The translations under genes were made by a program, and so were the position numbers. The notes below the pieces were generated by a model, which did no database searches, was not told the DNA's origin, and was given only the letters and a program-made list of their open reading frames with translations. This document shows, piece by piece, positions 6,016 to 53,677 of a stretch of DNA of 64,000 nt. The stretch is from an uncultured Candidatus Saccharibacteria bacterium (GTDB lineage: Bacteria > Patescibacteriota > Minisyncoccia > Phycocordibacterales > Phycocordibacteraceae): assembly GCA_964507275.1 (NCBI GenBank), contig CAZDPG010000001.1:276577-340576 (forward strand). Direction: 5' to 3'. The stretch's first letter is position 1. Every line of letters starts with the position of its first letter.

Positions 6016-7122
6016 CTACCCGTGCAAAAACACCATAACATCGCCATCCTTCACGACGTACTCCTTCCCTTCGACACGCACCATACCTTTCTCGCGAGCG
6101 GCGGCGTAGGAGCCGAGCTCAAGGAGCTTGTTCCATTCGATGACTTCGGCACGAATGAACTTCTCCAAGAAATCGTTGTGAATCGCGGCACCGGCGACTG
6201 GCGCCGTACTGCCTTGGGAGATCGTCCAGGCGCGCGTCTCTACCTGACCCGTCGTGAAGAATGAGATGAGACCGAGCGTCTCATAGGCACCCCGGATGAG
6301 ATCGGCAAGACCGTCTTCGTTTACGCCGAGCTCCTGACGAAAACTCGTACGATCTTCATCAGCGACATCGTTCAGCTCGCGCTCGGTCGCGGCATCGACA
6401 AATACGTAGCGTCCGCCGAGCGTTTCGATAAGCTCATACGCCCGCTCTGCCCGCCCATCATTAGCTTCGTCGAGATTATGTCCGCCACTCTTCTTATTGA
6501 GTGCATACAGGATAGGCTTCATCGTGAGCAGGTTCAAGCTGGACACCAGTTTCTTTTCCTCATCCGTAAGTCCGGCATGAAGCGCGAGCTTCCCCGCAGC
6601 AAATCCCTGAGCCAGCTTCGCGAGCGCAGCGTCTTCAGCGACGGCATCCTTCACGCCAGCCTTGATGTCGCGTGCGAGCTTGTCGCGACGCTTACGCACC
6701 TGTTCAGCATCAGCAAGCGCAAGCTCCAAATTGATGATCTCGATATCCTTGTACGGTTCGATGTCGCCTTCGACATGATGCACCTCCGAATCGTCGAAAA
6801 AGCGCACGACCTGCAGTATTGCATCGGTCTCGCGTATATTCGCAAGGAATTGATTTCCGAGTCCTTCACCTTCTGCGGCACCCTTCACCAGGCCGGCGAT
6901 GTCGACGAACTCTATCGCTGCCGGGATTATCTTCTCGGTCTTCGAGAAGGCCGCGAGCTTGCCGAGACGCTCGTCTGGAACCCCGACGACACCGACCGAA
7001 GGATCGATGGTGCAGAACGGATAATTCTCCGCCGGCACAGAAGCTTTTGTGAGTGCATTAAAAAGCGTGGATTTCCCCACGTTCGGTAGACCGACGATTC
7101 CTATCTTAAGCATGTTACCCAC
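6016..7122 (-). CDS. ychF: Ribosome-binding ATPase YchF (Obg-like ATPase)
   Basis: G1 motif GLPNVGKSTLFNALT and NYPFCTIDP are present, and a TGS-like C-terminus. The probable start is the internal MLKIGIV at 7113. Confidence 0.9.
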   Translation of the reverse strand: MGNMLKIGIVGLPNVGKSTLFNALTKASVPAENYPFCTIDPSVGVVGVPDERLGKLAAFSKTEKIIPAAIEFVDIAGLVKGAAEGEGLGNQFLANIRETDAILQVVRFFDDSEVHHVEGDIEPYKDIEIINLELALADAEQVRKRRDKLARDIKAGVKDAVAEDAALAKLAQGFAAGKLALHAGLTDEEKKLVSSLNLLTMKPILYALNKKSGGHNLDEANDGRAERAYELIETLGGRYVFVDAATERELNDVADEDRTSFRQELGVNEDGLADLIRGAYETLGLISFFTTGQVETRAWTISQGSTAPVAGAAIHNDFLEKFIRAEVIEWNKLLELGSYAAAREKGMVRVEGKEYVVKDGDVMVFLHG

Positions 7123-7194
7123 TATTGCCTTTTTCTACTGAAACTTCAAGTTTCAAAGAAATGAAATTAGTGCATCGACCCAGTAACATTGTTA

Positions 7195-7230
7195 TATAAA
7201 AACGAAAAGCCCACGAGAAGCTCATGGGCT
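7195..7230 (-). terminator. Rho-independent terminator downstream of the 7256..7786 gene
   Basis: Hairpin agcccacgag-aagc-ctcatgggct followed (on the minus strand) by tttcgttttta. Confidence 0.5.
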
Positions 7231-7255
7231 TTCGTAGACTGGTGGAGCTACATCA

Positions 7256-7786
7256 TCAAGCGGCCTTCAAGAATCGTGGCCGGGTTTCTTCTTGCGCTAT
7301 GGTCTCGAGCCATTCATTGAGCCAGTTTCTCTGAGCCAGAGTTACCAGCCGCTTGTCGGCTCCAGGTTCGAAGATGCATTCACCGTGTTGGTTATAAGGA
7401 AGCCCAACGGTGAATTTCAACCATCCTGCCGCACAGGCCTTGTCGCATTCGTCAAAGCCCGTTATTTGCCTGACAGTTACATCATGTTGCGCGAATCTGA
7501 CCGGGATGAATTTTCCTTCAGGGTTAAGCCATCCATAGCAGAATACCAACATGCACGTTTTTTCCTTAGTTTCTTCATCGCCTTCCGCCATTTCTACGAT
7601 GCGATCCGGAAGAATATCGATGAAGCGGAGAAATACTTCGATGCGGTTCTCGTAGTTGTTAGCCAGGAACCTAGCGGACTGACCACCGCACATCCTCATC
7701 AGGGCGAGGATGTTAAAAAGCTGACTATTGAACGCCATGATACCCTCCCTCATCCATTGGTTGTCGACAAAAAGCAAAAATTGCAC
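7256..7786 (-). CDS. Hypothetical protein in a compositionally atypical (AT-richer) segment
   Basis: 176-aa ORF with a protein-like composition and a terminator downstream. No recognisable domain. The surrounding intergenic DNA (7787-8166) is markedly AT-rich. Confidence 0.45.
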   Translation of the reverse strand: MQFLLFVDNQWMREGIMAFNSQLFNILALMRMCGGQSARFLANNYENRIEVFLRFIDILPDRIVEMAEGDEETKEKTCMLVFCYGWLNPEGKFIPVRFAQHDVTVRQITGFDECDKACAAGWLKFTVGLPYNQHGECIFEPGADKRLVTLAQRNWLNEWLETIAQEETRPRFLKAA

Positions 7787-8166
7787 GCCGCCGACAAGAT
7801 ACTATACAAAGACAGGAATGTCTAACTAATGGTCAAAGATTTTCAGGTACGAAAAATTCGATAATGACTATCCCCAGCGTCATTGTTTTTTTATCTTAGA
7901 TGACTCTATATCACGACGACGGGTTTGCGCGGCTCACCTACTATGACATCTTCGATGATGACTGATGATTGTTGCTTCTTGCGGTTACGATAGTCCGGCG
8001 GCGGTAATATGATAGTGAAAGTAAATGGAATTCCCTTTCCTTTGCCTGGTCTAAAAAAATGGTTCATAGAGAACATGCGGTACCTATCTTGAGCATAGTC
8101 TCAAACTACCCTGTCGGAAGAGAAAAAGGACGGGTTTGTGTATTGCTGGGGCAAAAAAACAACCGG

Positions 8167-8865
8167 CTATGCCGGCTGTTCAACGATGCCAAGTACACTG
8201 AGCGATGCTTCGAGAAGCAGATTCTGCAGGACCGCATCTACCTGAGACCGATTAGCGATGGTTCCTTTGTCGGTATCGGTCAGGATTCGATCAATCTCGT
8301 TCCCGAAATCCATCCAATACTTCCTGTTTCGCGCAGGGAGCCGACACGAGCAGTGGGCACTACCCGATTTCGAGAGAGACTCCGGACCAGGGTGACCACA
8401 TCGGCACGACATCACCCTAATAAGCCCGGCTTCCCTGAACCGCACGAACTGCCAGAGGTGCGATGCCGTAATCTGTTTGTCGAAGTGCCCGTCCGACGCA
8501 AACTTCTTAAGATGCGCGACGTACTCCTTCTGAAACAGCTCCTGGGCGATGACGAACGTGAAGACAGTGAGAAGCTTCTCGTTCTCGAACTGGTAGCAAC
8601 TTTGAACGTGCTCCTTCACTTTAGTGAACACCTGGAAGAAGGCATGCCCCGCGAGACTTTTGAACCTGGACCTGAGAAACCCCTCCGGCTGGATGAACAT
8701 CCCTTTGATGAAAGTCTTCGGGACGAACTGAACCATGCTCGCGCTCGACATCCAATTCTGGATAGACATTTGAGACATCTCCAACATGCTGGCGGCAAGG
8801 CTCAAGCGCAACCCAGTCCGGAAAAGCAGGTAAATCAACAATTCACTTCCTAGATTCTTTTTCAT
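8167..8865 (-). CDS. Hypothetical protein, Cys-containing C-terminus, in the AT-richer segment
   Basis: 232-aa ORF with the SD-like aagggga 7 nt upstream of the ATG. Preferred over the overlapping Arg-rich plus-strand ORF 8059..8853. Confidence 0.4.
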   Translation of the reverse strand: MKKNLGSELLIYLLFRTGLRLSLAASMLEMSQMSIQNWMSSASMVQFVPKTFIKGMFIQPEGFLRSRFKSLAGHAFFQVFTKVKEHVQSCYQFENEKLLTVFTFVIAQELFQKEYVAHLKKFASDGHFDKQITASHLWQFVRFREAGLIRVMSCRCGHPGPESLSKSGSAHCSCRLPARNRKYWMDFGNEIDRILTDTDKGTIANRSQVDAVLQNLLLEASLSVLGIVEQPA

Positions 8866-50290: not shown

Positions 50291-50311
50291 CTTGTTCTCC
50301 CGTTTTTGATG

Positions 50312-50337
50312 CATTGCACGATACCCATCGTGCAATG
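50312..50337. repeat. Perfect 11-bp inverted repeat hairpin (cattgcacgat-accc-atcgtgcaatg)
   Basis: Read directly. It lies between the rhodanese stop and the TnpA-like start, where IS200/IS605 elements carry their subterminal hairpins. Confidence 0.6.
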
Positions 50338-50379
50338 AGACTTCATCCAGAAATACTTTAATATGAATATGGCCTTGCG

Positions 50380-50634
50380 TCAACCCGCCACGACTTCCAT
50401 CGCTTCTTCGAGTCCTCCTATATTCACGGCATTCGTGAAGCCCGCTGATTGCAGGAGTGCACACGCATAGGCGGCTCGTGCGCCTGAGCGGCAATAGAGT
50501 TGGAGCTCTGCATCCCGCTCCACGAGCGCGAGCTCGCCGAAGTGTCCCTCGTCGAGGTCGCTGACCGGGATGTTCACAGCACCCTTGATGTGCCCCATCG
50601 AATATTCTTCAGGAGTTCGTACGTCGATAAGCAT
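50380..50634 (-). CDS. Single-domain rhodanese (sulfurtransferase-like)
   Basis: LIDVRTPEEYSMGHIKGAVNIP and the active-site loop CRSGARA. Confidence 0.8.
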   Translation of the reverse strand: MLIDVRTPEEYSMGHIKGAVNIPVSDLDEGHFGELALVERDAELQLYCRSGARAAYACALLQSAGFTNAVNIGGLEEAMEVVAG

Positions 50635-50637
50635 CGT

Positions 50638-50898
50638 TCATACCGTAGCACAGACCGAAGTGCTCACCAACACTAGCTTCTTTTCGCGCGGCCATGCCTT
50701 AATCTCCGCTTCGCGCTTGCTGGCCGCACTCCGATTCGGATGCGGTTCCGTATACACGATGCGCTTCGCCTTCTTCGATCTGGTGAAGCTACTCCCGATA
50801 CCCTTCTGATGTTCAGCAAACCGCCGCGTGACGTCGGTCGTAATGCCGGTGTAAAGAGAACCGTCCTCGCACTCGAGTAGATAGACGAAGTACTGCAC
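50638..50898 (-). CDS. GIY-YIG nuclease family protein (UPF0213/YhbQ-like)
   Basis: YFVYLLECEDGSLYTGITTDVTRRFAEH…RE..IK. Confidence 0.8.
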   Translation of the reverse strand: MQYFVYLLECEDGSLYTGITTDVTRRFAEHQKGIGSSFTRSKKAKRIVYTEPHPNRSAASKREAEIKAWPREKKLVLVSTSVCATV

Positions 50899-51054
50899 TT
50901 AGTTTTTTTCTCTGTCCGCCCAGAGGAATACTGCGCCGATGACTACCCAGAATGCGACACGCAGCCAATTCTGCGTCTGCACTGCGTCGAGAAGAGCCAC
51001 GCCGAAGAACAGTGCGAAGATTGCGAAATTCGTCCCAAGCTTCAGACCTTTCAT
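50899..51054 (-). CDS. Very small (51 aa) two-TM membrane protein; below the ORF-track cutoff
   Basis: MKGLKLGTNFAIFALFFGVALLDAVQTQNWLRVAFWVVIGAVFLWADREKN, translated by hand. Its stop abuts the GIY-YIG start. Confidence 0.25.
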   Translation of the reverse strand: MKGLKLGTNFAIFALFFGVALLDAVQTQNWLRVAFWVVIGAVFLWADREKN

Positions 51055-51083
51055 AGCTATAGTATAGCCGACCTATCTCTGTG

Positions 51084-51392
51084 CTAGAGCCCGCCGTTTA
51101 GCAGGAGCCCTATGGAGACCAGCACCGCCGTGATGCACACGAAAGATCCTATCGTCATAAGGAAGAGCCGTGTCGCCTCTTTCGGCTTGCTCTCAATCAA
51201 AAACTGAAGCGGCTGATACAGGAAGAAGAATCCCATGAGGGCGGCAGAGAGCACGAAGAGCGACAAGAAAGTGACAGGAGCGATGATGCCCGGCGAAGCA
51301 TCAAACGAATTAGGAACATAAAACACTGCAGACGCGACAAGAGTGATATACGCTGCCGCTGCGAGTGCATTCAGGAATGGGTTCTTTGTCAT
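51084..51392 (-). CDS. Hypothetical three-TM membrane protein
   Basis: Hydrophobic 102-aa ORF on the same strand as its neighbours. Confidence 0.45.
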   Translation of the reverse strand: MTKNPFLNALAAAAYITLVASAVFYVPNSFDASPGIIAPVTFLSLFVLSAALMGFFFLYQPLQFLIESKPKEATRLFLMTIGSFVCITAVLVSIGLLLNGGL

Positions 51393-51456
51393 ACTTACTC
51401 TAACGCACGGACGCGCTCGCGGGTTTCTCCACTCGCGGCGTCTAGCCTCGTTGGTT

Positions 51457-51708
51457 TTAGGATTTCTCCTTCTTCACCACGATGATGGTGCACTTGGTCG
51501 CGAGAGCGGCTATCGCCCCGACGGCAGCGAGCACTGGCACAAGGACAGCACCGATGGCCCCGATTGTGAGCGGTATCTCGATGACTGTCTCCCCGGACTC
51601 ATTCTTGATGATGATGCGCCGTGCATTTCCAGCTGCGATAAGCTCCTTGACCTTCTTCACGACTTCCTTTCCATCGACGCTGAATTCTTCTTGGTTGTTG
51701 GTGTCCAT
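51457..51708 (-). CDS. DUF4342-like small protein
   Basis: GNARRIIIKNESGETVIEIPLTIGAIGAVLVPVLAAVGAIAAL matches the DUF4342 pattern as recalled. Confidence 0.55.
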   Translation of the reverse strand: MDTNNQEEFSVDGKEVVKKVKELIAAGNARRIIIKNESGETVIEIPLTIGAIGAVLVPVLAAVGAIAALATKCTIIVVKKEKS

Positions 51709-51770
51709 ATGCGCCTAGTATACAGAATTTGAGATTCTTGGCTGGCCGTGCGAGACGTTTTCGAGATCTT

Positions 51771-52478
51771 CTAACGAACCTCAAAAAACACTTTCGGTTT
51801 TGTGTCTAGAATATTAGCCTTAATCTCTGGGAATTCCTCCCCTTGTTGGATTCTTTCTACAAACTGTGCAAGCTCTCCGTCAAATGGGTACGCGTACGCG
51901 TCACAGGGAATACCTCTGACGGGTACACGACTTATACACTCTGGCAACTCCTCCAAGATATACGTCGCAAACTTCGATACGTCTTCTTCTGAGAACTTTC
52001 GTTCCTCTTTTGCTATTTGATTTCTTACAATTGCCTTTAAAGCTTCCGCGAACGCCACACTGGATTCAAAAAGTCCATATAGATAGTTCACTTTTCTCTT
52101 GTATGTCGAATCGTCCAGATCTTTCCAGGTAGCATAGAAGACTTTCTCGGCCTCATCCGGCCGGAAATTGATTTTTATATACTCCTCAACTTTAGAGAGG
52201 ATTTCTCTCCCCTTTCCAGTCGCGGAGCGCACCGCCTTATCATAAGGAATACGATTCCTGACTTCTAGGTTTATGGCATGAATCGTGTCAGCGGCGTAAA
52301 CAACCACACTCTCACGAGAGTATTGCAGGGCCCATCGTACGAGTTCCGCTGTATTCTCTACAGAAAACCATTTATTACCAAGACTTATCGCGACTCCGAT
52401 ATTATATTTCCTTGCCTGAAGTTCAGCTTTACTTCCGCCGCGAATCTTATATAGCTCCATGTAACTGGAATATGGCAC
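51771..52478 (-). CDS. Cyclodipeptide synthase (tRNA-dependent CDPS) family protein
   Basis: IGVAISLGNKWFSVENTAELVRWALQYSRESVVVYAADTIHAINL aligns with the AlbC/YvmC pocket block L(I/V)GIS.(G/F)N(S)(Y/R)FS…W…V.V……H. A later YILEELPECI block matches Y(V)(L/I)AE(A/L)P(L/F)F, which carries the catalytic Glu. GTG start at 52478, or ATG at 52460. The gene is clearly lower in GC than its surroundings. Confidence 0.7.
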   Translation of the reverse strand: MPYSSYMELYKIRGGSKAELQARKYNIGVAISLGNKWFSVENTAELVRWALQYSRESVVVYAADTIHAINLEVRNRIPYDKAVRSATGKGREILSKVEEYIKINFRPDEAEKVFYATWKDLDDSTYKRKVNYLYGLFESSVAFAEALKAIVRNQIAKEERKFSEEDVSKFATYILEELPECISRVPVRGIPCDAYAYPFDGELAQFVERIQQGEEFPEIKANILDTKPKVFFEVR

Positions 52479-52494
52479 ATCTTATGAACATTGT

Positions 52495-52524
52495 CAGCTG
52501 GGGGGGGTTAGGGAACAATCCTAG
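52495..52524. repeat. Degenerate direct copy of the tRNA-Gln 3' end (att-site-like remnant)
   Basis: cagctgggggggttagggaacaatcc compares with the tRNA's cagctgggggacagggaatcgaacc. The first 10 nt are identical and the rest partly conserved. It sits 17 nt 3' of the tRNA, between the tRNA and the CDPS start. Confidence 0.4.
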
Positions 52525-52540
52525 AGTCTCCTACACACAG

Positions 52541-52611
52541 CTGGGGGACAGGGAATCGAACCCCGATTAGATCCTTCAAAGGGACCTGTCCGACCATTAG
52601 ACGATCCCCCA
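52541..52611 (-). tRNA. tRNA-Gln (anticodon TTG)
   Basis: 71-nt cloverleaf TGGGGGA-TC-GTCT…, with a U1:A72 pair and G73 discriminator (Gln identity), anticodon loop CTTTGAA and T-loop TTCGATT. Confidence 0.85.
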
Positions 52612-52642
52612 GCTGTGGGCACGAGCGCACAAGGACACATTA

Positions 52643-53677
52643 TCACTTACCTGCTTGTTCAGGAAAGAGCTCGAGGACGGCGAGCTCAAGCGGAAGTGCG
52701 GGGATAGGTGCGTAGCGGATACGGTCAGCGGCAGTGAGGAAGGCGAGCATGGTCGCATGCGTGATGCCCTTCCCTTTTGCGAATTCCTCCAGCGCCACAG
52801 ACTCGTCCGCACCAAGCTCACTCTTGAGCGCTTCACGGAGTTCAGGTGCATAGCGTAGGAGGAGCGTGGAGCGGAGCACTTCGAGTATGAGCTCAAGGAA
52901 GAGCTTCATGTCCGCGTCCGACTTCGCGGCGCTCTCTATCGCGGAGAGCGCAGCTCCGCGCTCTCCCTTAGCAAGGGCGGCTATGAGCGCGTGCACCTGC
53001 TCGCGACGTGGAGCACCGGTCGTCTGCTCCACGATCGTGCGCGACAGAGTCTTCTCTCCTGTCGCAAGCACCTTCTGCAACACAGAGAGTGCATCGCGGT
53101 ATGAGCCGCCGGCGAGCATCGCGATGAGGTCAGCGGCATCAGGCGCGAGCGTGTATCCCTCTCTCGAAGCGACGGCTGCCGTCATCTTGGCGAGGACAGC
53201 ACGTGTCGGCTTCTTGAACTCGAATACCTGGCAACGCGATTGTACCGTCTCAGGCACCTTCGAGAGTTCGGTCGTGGCGAGAATGAACACCGCATGCGCC
53301 GGAGGTTCTTCGAGCGTCTTCAGGAATGCATTCCATGCACCCTTCGAGAGCATGTGCACCTCGTCGAGGATGTACACCTTGTATGGCGACGCGAACGGAA
53401 GCGTATATACGCCGTCAGTGAGCGCGCGGATATCTTCAACGCTGTTGTTGCTCGCTGCGTCGATCTCATAGAGATCATTCTCGGTGCAACCAATAGCGCC
53501 AGCGAATATCCGCGCGACTGAGGTCTTCCCGAGACCGCGCGAACCAGAGAAGAGGTATGCATGACCGATCTTCTTCGCCTTCACCGCTTCCTCCAGCGGT
53601 TTCGTCACCTGTTCCTGTCCCACGACATCAGCGAAGGATGCGGGGCGGTGAATACGATAGAGAGACTGGTGCGCCAT
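52643..53677 (-). CDS. dnaX: DNA polymerase III gamma/tau subunit, short (345 aa, domains I-III only)
   Basis: MAHQSLYRIHRPASFADVVGQEQV start, Walker A GSRGLGKTSVARI, DEVHMLS box and SRC motif. The upstream in-frame extension to 54085 is Arg/Asp-rich and overlaps a divergent gene, so it is treated as spurious. Confidence 0.85.
   Translation of the reverse strand: MAHQSLYRIHRPASFADVVGQEQVTKPLEEAVKAKKIGHAYLFSGSRGLGKTSVARIFAGAIGCTENDLYEIDAASNNSVEDIRALTDGVYTLPFASPYKVYILDEVHMLSKGAWNAFLKTLEEPPAHAVFILATTELSKVPETVQSRCQVFEFKKPTRAVLAKMTAAVASREGYTLAPDAADLIAMLAGGSYRDALSVLQKVLATGEKTLSRTIVEQTTGAPRREQVHALIAALAKGERGAALSAIESAAKSDADMKLFLELILEVLRSTLLLRYAPELREALKSELGADESVALEEFAKGKGITHATMLAFLTAADRIRYAPIPALPLELAVLELFPEQAGK

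Follow-up and report, generated by a model that had tools for sequence, protein, structure and literature searches.

A cyclodipeptide synthase gene in a probable mobile cassette at the 3′ end of a tRNA-Gln gene of a candidate phyla radiation bacterium

Introduction

Among characterised enzymes, the best match to the gene described here is ParcuCDPS, a cyclodipeptide synthase (CDPS) of the XYP subfamily from Parcubacteria bacterium RAAC4_OD1_1, which makes cyclo(His-Pro) and cyclo(His-Glu) (cHP and cHE; Gondry et al, 2018, PMC5816076; Sutherland, 2022, PMC7613923), at 44% cHP and 56% cHE when expressed in E. coli (PMC5816076). Our subject is a ParcuCDPS-like gene that adjoins a tRNA-Gln gene in a stretch of 64,000 nucleotides (nt) from an uncultured bacterium of the candidate phyla radiation (CPR), deposited as Candidatus Saccharibacteria (GenBank assembly GCA_964507275.1, contig CAZDPG010000001.1, positions 276,577 to 340,576 of the forward strand); this whole stretch is called the window below. 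In ParcuCDPS (CDPS 90 of Gondry et al, 2018; structure 7QB8, mutants 7QAQ–7QAY), residues S26, Y167, E171, and Y191 are catalytic, D58 is essential and polarises S26, G84 forms a kink, and Y55, E174, and Y189 make up the histidine-selecting triad of the first substrate pocket, P1 (PMC7613923).

Two further systems serve as points of comparison. AlbC of Streptomyces noursei (3OQV) and YvmC are CDPSs of the NYH type, which share with the window protein a Rossmann-like fold related to class-I aminoacyl-tRNA synthetases and a Ser/Tyr/Glu/Tyr catalytic set. The locus as a whole resembles tRNA-associated genomic islands: the insert begins where a tRNA gene ends, its composition deviates, sister lineages lack it, and its junction holds an incomplete tRNA 3′-end copy. 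It differs from them in measuring only 0.8 kb, in carrying a single cargo gene, and in having neither a nearby integrase or recombinase nor a distal repeat. Taken together, the data presented below make it quite probable that the window holds an active CDPS of the ParcuCDPS clade, encoded in a 797-nt cassette that was acquired horizontally and exchanged recently at the 3′ end of tRNA-Gln.

Results

Family, fold, and active-site residues

The longest open reading frame (ORF) of the gene spans 51771..52478 on the minus strand, starts with GTG, and encodes 235 amino acids (aa). Its product scores 40.9 bits against PF16715 (Pfam CDPS; cut-off 27) and 59.2 bits against TIGR04539 (NCBIfam "tRNA-dependent cyclodipeptide synthase"; cut-off 45). 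Among PDB sequences, the best phmmer matches are the ParcuCDPS entries 7QAQ, 7QAT, 7QAU, 7QAW, 7QAX, 7QAY, and 7QB8, with E-values of about 1e-72 (4e-72 for 7QB8 and 7QAQ). The alignment to ParcuCDPS is free of gaps over the full length, pairing residues 7–235 of the 235-aa version with residues 1–229 (229/230 aa, 48% identity); residues are numbered below from residue 7 of that version. The match to AlbC is far weaker (E = 1.6e-7, about 20% identity).

From an alignment of 24 sequences, AlphaFold2 gave a model with a predicted local distance difference test score of 95.3 and a predicted template modelling (TM) score of 0.89. When it was compared with the PDB by Foldseek, all 50 of the matches listed were CDPSs and the first seven were ParcuCDPS structures, with TM scores of 0.87–0.90 (7QB8 best, 0.87/0.90), against 0.65–0.75 for AlbC and YvmC. 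The predicted structure thus has the Rossmann-like fold, related to class-I aminoacyl-tRNA synthetases, of the solved CDPSs.

Residues S26, N29, Y55, D58, G84, Y167, E171, E174, Y189, Y191, and P192 are conserved in the window protein. The catalytic set S26/Y167/E171/Y191 corresponds to S37, Tyr178, Glu182, and Tyr202 of AlbC and is invariant in 79 homologues (57 bacterial and 22 archaeal-type), except that Y191 is found in 77 of the 79 and that one sequence is gapped at S26. A first-pass annotation of the window had called the product a CDPS from two motif blocks, with a Ser and a Glu at the catalytic positions. Both blocks are in the sequence, the two residues align as S26 and E171, and the family searches and the model agree with the call.

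The annotation had left open whether the enzyme is of the NYH or the XYP type. The Tyr-Pro pair at AlbC positions 202–203 corresponds to Y191-P192, as in ParcuCDPS, and P192 is invariant across the clade. The NYH signature (Asn40, Tyr202, and His203 in AlbC) is matched only in part: N29 and Y191 fit it, whereas Pro replaces the His at position 192. All five residues that mark a His-using CDPS of the ParcuCDPS type, namely D58, G84, and the triad Y55/E174/Y189, are retained within the gap-free alignment, so that the two enzymes, both from CPR bacteria, have in common the S26/D58 dyad, Y167, E171, Y191-P192, N29, the G84 kink, and the triad. Every criterion of sequence and modelled structure examined places the ORF among the CDPSs, in the XYP subfamily and in the ParcuCDPS clade.

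Gene start and leader

Nearly all CDPS homologues are 229 aa long with an N-terminus of the form MEL..., and the crystal construct of ParcuCDPS starts at the equivalent Met, so that translation almost certainly begins with the ATG at 52460. The coding sequence, stop included, then occupies 51771..52460 on the minus strand and encodes 229 aa, which replaces the 235 aa reported at first. Judging from the same homologue and construct starts, the six codons up to the upstream GTG (52461..52478, minus strand) are probably untranslated.

This extension overlaps a promoter-like site picked up by a sequence scan, CTGACA-17 nt-(TG)CATATT (52469..52497, minus strand), which ends 8 nt short of the ATG. 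No Shine–Dalgarno sequence is evident before the ATG; if used, the site would give a nearly leaderless CDPS mRNA. Against its use stands that terminator and promoter scans of the CDPS region returned counts at chance level, promoter-like matches around the gene being no commoner than chance, and we treat the site only as a hint. A permissive Rfam scan of 51400–52800 returned no structured RNA besides the tRNA (other matches E > 3).

A single-gene cassette in a variable slot after tRNA-Gln

As the first-pass annotation had noted, the gene stands alone beside a tRNA-Gln gene. This intact tRNA-Gln(UUG) (52540..52611, minus strand; ARAGORN; Rfam tRNA, 54.2 bits) is co-oriented with the CDPS gene, lies 79 nt upstream of its ATG, and belongs to a conserved backbone, in which it is preceded by dnaX (DNA polymerase III gamma/tau; 52643..53677, minus strand). 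We retrieved four sister lineages, L099–L102, via the neighbouring DnaX, which is 92% identical to that of the window in L102, 89% in L099, 87% in L101, and 86% in L100. The upstream backbone and dnaX followed by a co-oriented tRNA-Gln(ttg) are kept in all four, and the slot after the tRNA lacks a CDPS in all four.

L102 allows the boundaries of the insert to be placed at the base pair. Its DUF4342 protein, encoded to the right of the slot, is 100% identical to that of the window, and a 102-aa membrane protein (TM102) 87% identical. Between tRNA-Gln and the DUF4342 gene, L102 has a 1.5-kb slot with ORFs of 232, 35, and 191 aa, none of which has a match in the window. In a blastn comparison, nucleotide homology between the two extends a single base beyond the tRNA, to 52539, and restarts at 51741. 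The window-specific cassette therefore comprises 797 nt (51742..52538, minus strand): a tRNA relic, the leader, the CDPS gene as sole coding content, and 29 nt past the stop. Its end lies 33 nt from the DUF4342 gene (51457..51708, minus strand; Pfam E = 1.7e-27), which belongs to the backbone and borders the slot on the right, just as the tRNA bounds it on the left. ORFs of 232 and 245 aa without annotation, located after dnaX in the sisters, were considered as divergent CDPSs and rejected, having neither a Pfam hit nor a tblastn match to the window.

Among the sisters, the dnaX–tRNA-Gln region varies on both sides of the tRNA and behaves as a hot spot. Each of L099–L102 has different uncharacterised ORFs after the tRNA, and in L100 a type II DNA methyltransferase gene (L100:6093-6764) stands between dnaX and the tRNA. 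That methyltransferase, upstream of the tRNA, was the only PADLOC defence match; the CDPS, DUF4342, and the slot ORFs of the sisters gave none.

The tRNA relic is a 36-nt segment, AGGAGACTCTAGGATTGTTCCCTAACCCCCCCCAGC (52497..52532, minus strand), from the 3′ half of a second tRNA-Gln, of a type that L099 has in intact form. It begins 7 nt past the intact tRNA-Gln and runs straight into the promoter-like site. Aligned with positions 40–71 of the tRNA-Gln of L099, it matches at 28 of 31 positions (alignment score 25), whereas no non-Gln tRNA scores above 9 and the intact tRNA-Gln of the window also scores 9; the relic occurs only once in the window, where 0 chance matches are expected. Since a similar relic-plus-leader precedes the CDPS in two other loci, L018 and L049 (scores 20 and 16; shuffled maximum 13), the cassette appears from these alignments to carry the tRNA-Gln fragment along.

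Two further features of the tRNA genes were noted. The tRNA-Gln(ttg) of L099 (L099:2337-2410) has an atypical T-loop, GGATCGTTCC, in place of the usual GGTTCGAxTCC; the relic shares this type, and the intact tRNA-Gln of the window is canonical. In addition, a 21-nt inverted repeat (52528–52548 and 52605–52625, 86% complementary) extends the acceptor stem of the window's tRNA-Gln into both flanks and could be a helix for precursor processing.

The insert directly adjoins a tRNA 3′ end, and close relatives lack it; the cassette was most probably acquired horizontally into the variable slot, which opens where the conserved tRNA-Gln(UUG) ends. Three observations weigh against acquisition as an island of the usual kind. 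No integrase or recombinase is found among the genes of the insert or of the 6 kb to each side of it. No distal attachment (att) repeat of the tRNA 3′ end was found by a repeat search of 50300–52700 or by a mismatch-tolerant search of the window for both tRNA 3′ sequences. Finally, the relic lies on the side proximal to the tRNA, not on the distal side as in a classical island. Because the integrase and the distal repeat are missing, the cassette is not a classical integrative island; its insertion could instead have occurred by homologous recombination through tRNA sequence or through an unknown recombinase acting in trans.

Recent exchange with a diverged strain

A related strain, L003, carries the tRNA-Gln and CDPS block in nearly identical form. 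Over 51674..52678 (minus strand) only 2 differences occur in about 1 kb, including an identical run of 792 nt (51715–52506), and the 690-nt CDPS gene has 0 differences. The flanks, in contrast, are about 4.5% different, with 7.8 differences per 100 nt in the DnaX gene and 6.75 in the DUF4342 gene. At the rate of the flanks, about 42 differences would be expected in the 934 nt between 51709 and 52642 (P(≤2) of about 4e-16). Near-identity despite such flank divergence indicates that the block was exchanged very recently. We propose that populations of related Paceibacteria exchanged the block by recombining in the tRNA and the intergenic DNA that flank the cassette. Together with the lack of a CDPS in the sister slots, the breakpoints, the tRNA relic, and the third-position composition described below, the exchange bears out the earlier suggestion of horizontal acquisition.

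Distribution of the family and its linkage to tRNA genes

The first-pass annotation had regarded a CDPS in a CPR bacterium as unusual. The opposite holds: besides the parcubacterial origin of ParcuCDPS, an identical 229-aa protein (P0001) is already named [quoted passage not shown] at NCBI, and it occurs on 23 contigs from groundwater metagenomes. We collected 239 homologues at E ≤ 1e-3, and most of those with a named source are from Patescibacteria. The best 120 of the 239 are mostly 229 aa long and 46–59% identical to the window protein, the closest outside the window's own population reaching 59%. The 32 loci from species-representative genomes likewise belong mostly to Patescibacteria, together with six DPANN archaea (30–39% identity).

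The archaeal sequences form a sister CDPS clade in Pacearchaeota, Nanoarchaeota, and Woesearchaeota (L029, L031, L033–L036, and about 16 metagenome loci, L075–L094), at 30–39% identity and with invariant catalytic residues. The His triad is replaced in this clade, with L or W at position 55 and E, G, S, or I at position 174, which suggests other substrates.

Across the family, CDPS genes are found after tRNA genes more often than are their neighbours. Of 77 CDPS genes, 13 have a co-oriented tRNA no more than 300 nt upstream, compared with 15 of the 708 other genes of the same loci (2.1%). This excess is about eightfold (binomial p = 9e-9), a value that is not corrected for relatedness among loci. 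The upstream tRNAs vary in identity (Gln, Ser, Leu, Arg, Gly, Ile, Pro, Glu), even beside closely related CDPSs. The linkage is limited to the bacterial clade, as no upstream tRNA was found in the loci of the DPANN clade. It may reflect a preference for tRNA genes as insertion sites, borrowed expression, or both. Transcription of the window CDPS would start in its own short leader or read through from the tRNA.

An alternative is that the adjacency is functional and not a trace of insertion, the CDPS being co-transcribed with the tRNA, its expression tied to tRNA supply, or Glu- or Gln-tRNA(Gln) serving as second substrate. In L011, L021, and L032 (tRNA-Gln) and in L015 (tRNA-Pro), the ATG follows the tRNA by only 3–8 nt, which leaves no space for a separate promoter and thus implies co-transcription with an almost leaderless mRNA. 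All but one of the tRNAs within 300 nt upstream are co-oriented with the CDPS gene, tRNA-Gln recurs in 7 loci, and ParcuCDPS accepts Pro and Glu (PMC5816076). A functional tie is harder to reconcile with the diversity of tRNA identities and with the roughly 80% of loci that have no nearby tRNA, among them that of ParcuCDPS itself (L017), which has none within 6 kb. In the window, moreover, tRNA and gene are 79 nt apart, and this spacer contains the relic and a promoter-like site. Insertion at tRNA genes and co-transcription with them can also both hold, and we regard functional adjacency as a possibility worth keeping in mind, albeit a rather doubtful one.

Base composition and the case for vertical descent

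The CDPS gene is AT-richer than its flanks, as had been remarked at the outset. Its GC content of 0.441 is the global minimum of the window, which averages 0.547 (standard deviation 0.028 over 690-nt segments); only 0.08% of 690-nt segments are as GC-poor. GC content at third codon positions (GC3) is 0.44, against 0.62 ± 0.05 in the 60 other window ORFs that encode 100 aa or more, which makes it the lowest of the 61 (z = −3.5). Because GC3 is also the lowest, the anomaly does not merely follow from amino-acid composition.

Low GC is in part a habit of the family and so does not by itself prove recent arrival. The CDPS gene is AT-richer than its flanks in 31 of the 32 genome loci, and its GC3 lies below host GC3 in 95% of 56 loci; part of the deficit is therefore a family trait, and low GC alone would not date the acquisition. 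Regression of CDPS GC3 on host GC3 gives a slope of 0.59 (r = 0.88), so that the deficit is largest in GC-rich hosts; the host of the window has a GC content of 55%, that of ParcuCDPS 30%. The pattern fits a CDPS gene pool that circulates in mostly AT-rich hosts and is partly adjusted to the composition of each.

The same data could be read as favouring an ancestral CDPS inherited vertically in Paceibacteria, with low GC as a family preference in amino acids and codons and with loss or replacement of the gene in the sisters. The deficit in nearly all relatives whatever their host GC, the tracking of host GC3, which suggests long residence, and the wide occurrence of the clade in Patescibacteria speak for this view. 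We nevertheless consider it improbable, since all four sisters with the dnaX–tRNA-Gln backbone lack the CDPS in the slot, the nearest outside CDPS is only 59% identical when the DnaX proteins of the sisters are 86–92% identical, the block is near-identical in a strain with about 4.5% flank divergence, the genomic context differs at almost every CDPS locus, and a slope of 0.59 with the deficit largest in GC-rich hosts is as expected for incomplete adjustment. Horizontal acquisition of the cassette remains the better account.

Predicted activity and product

By homology to ParcuCDPS, Ser26, polarised by Asp58, would be acylated from a first aminoacyl-tRNA bound in P1; a second aminoacyl-tRNA would then react at the second pocket (P2) to give a dipeptidyl-enzyme, and Tyr167, Glu171, and Tyr191 would aid cyclisation to the 2,5-diketopiperazine. 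With the histidine-selecting triad Y55/E174/Y189 intact, the first substrate is most likely His-tRNA(His), and the predicted product is most likely a cyclo(His-X), in which X could be Pro or Glu.

Both the activity and the specificity for His are thus inferred from ParcuCDPS, and the comparison has weaknesses that count against too close a transfer. The window protein is only 48% identical to this characterised enzyme. At P1 position 175 it has C in place of L. The residues that follow the YP motif, which by AlbC numbering we presume to contribute to P2, are the acidic F-D-G-E at positions 193–196, compared with the basic Y-K-T-R of ParcuCDPS; here the window protein follows the majority of the clade and ParcuCDPS is the outlier. 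Because F193, D194, G195, and E196 differ in this way, the assignment of X is uncertain.

That the ORF is an inactive relic, or has the CDPS fold with another function, is very unlikely: no tailoring or export gene was found nearby and ParcuCDPS itself is low-yielding (0.4 mg/L cHP; PMC5816076), but the reading frame is intact, the catalytic residues hold throughout the bacterial and archaeal-type homologues with the few exceptions given above, the structural model is of high confidence, and the identical protein is on 23 contigs from several samples.

Neighbouring genes and other features of the window

No cyclodipeptide oxidase, P450, or other tailoring gene is adjacent to the window CDPS, in agreement with the first-pass annotation. 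That annotation had also proposed that the downstream genes, DUF4342 and two small membrane-like ORFs, might serve export or self-protection. The genes are indeed there, but the proposed role is unsupported, since they are backbone that has diverged normally in L003. As candidate partners of the CDPS, DUF4342, TM102, and the other downstream genes were rejected, being near-absent from relatives; DUF4342 and TM102 are, moreover, present in L102 with no CDPS in the slot. In a phmmer search of the window's neighbours against the ORFs of the 32 other CDPS genome loci, DUF4342 was found in 0 of 32 and TM102 in one, L015, directly downstream of the CDPS. In this locus, the CDPS (L015:6001-6684) has tRNA-Pro(tgg) 4 nt upstream and the TM102 homologue at about +30 nt downstream (E = 3.7e-13).

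The only recurrent partner among relatives is a SET-domain protein of 150–165 aa, whose gene follows that of the CDPS in the same orientation after 8–15 nt in eight related loci (L011:4718-5215, L024:6695-7168, L052–L054:4703-5167, L063:4695-5189, L075:1243-1695, and L071:1436-1555, the last cut by the contig end). One of these loci belongs to the archaeal-type CDPS clade. The proteins match PF00856 (E of about 4e-12), have a Cys-rich post-SET motif, and are 50–73% identical to one another; they may be tailoring methyltransferases. The window has no such partner.

A second GC-poor patch lies at about 7041–8400 of the window (690-nt minimum 0.442), next to a YchF-type GTPase gene. Its ORFs (7256–7786 minus, 7292–7825 plus, and 8059–8853 plus) have no Pfam match, and the patch may be another accessory insert.

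Discussion

Relative to the described systems, the enzyme itself adds little: expression, crystal structures, and engineering have already been achieved with a parcubacterial homologue of 48% identity, and the exact protein is already named publicly. What sets the locus apart is an unusually clean single-gene mobile cassette, with boundaries defined to the base pair, an alternative cassette in the slot of L102, and a near-identical block in L003. The excess of upstream tRNAs across the family suggests that settling beside tRNA genes is a general habit of the clade. Our search of the literature on CDPSs in CPR or DPANN genomes, and on linkage between CDPS and tRNA genes, surfaced only the ParcuCDPS papers. 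We regard the finding as moderately interesting for the tRNA-abutting, recently exchanged cassette and for the family-wide linkage, neither of which we found described in the searchable literature.

A broader proposal, which we advance tentatively and would not yet bet on, is that ParcuCDPS-type genes of CPR bacteria travel as integrase-free single-gene cassettes that include a tRNA 3′ fragment and a leader. Such cassettes would be inserted repeatedly 3′ of tRNA genes, co-transcribed with the tRNA, in some cases as leaderless mRNAs arising from tRNA processing, and exchanged among co-occurring populations, with a related clade in DPANN archaea. If true, a natural-product gene would here be moved and expressed in a way not recognised so far, and His-containing diketopiperazines would be a traded accessory trait of ultra-small symbionts.

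CDPSs are among the few secondary-metabolite genes of CPR genomes. Variation in the presumed P2 residues suggests a diversity of products still to be explored, as does the fact that the archaeal-type branch has lost the His triad; the role of the diketopiperazines, together with the reason why the gene is traded, would bear on the interaction between episymbionts and their hosts.

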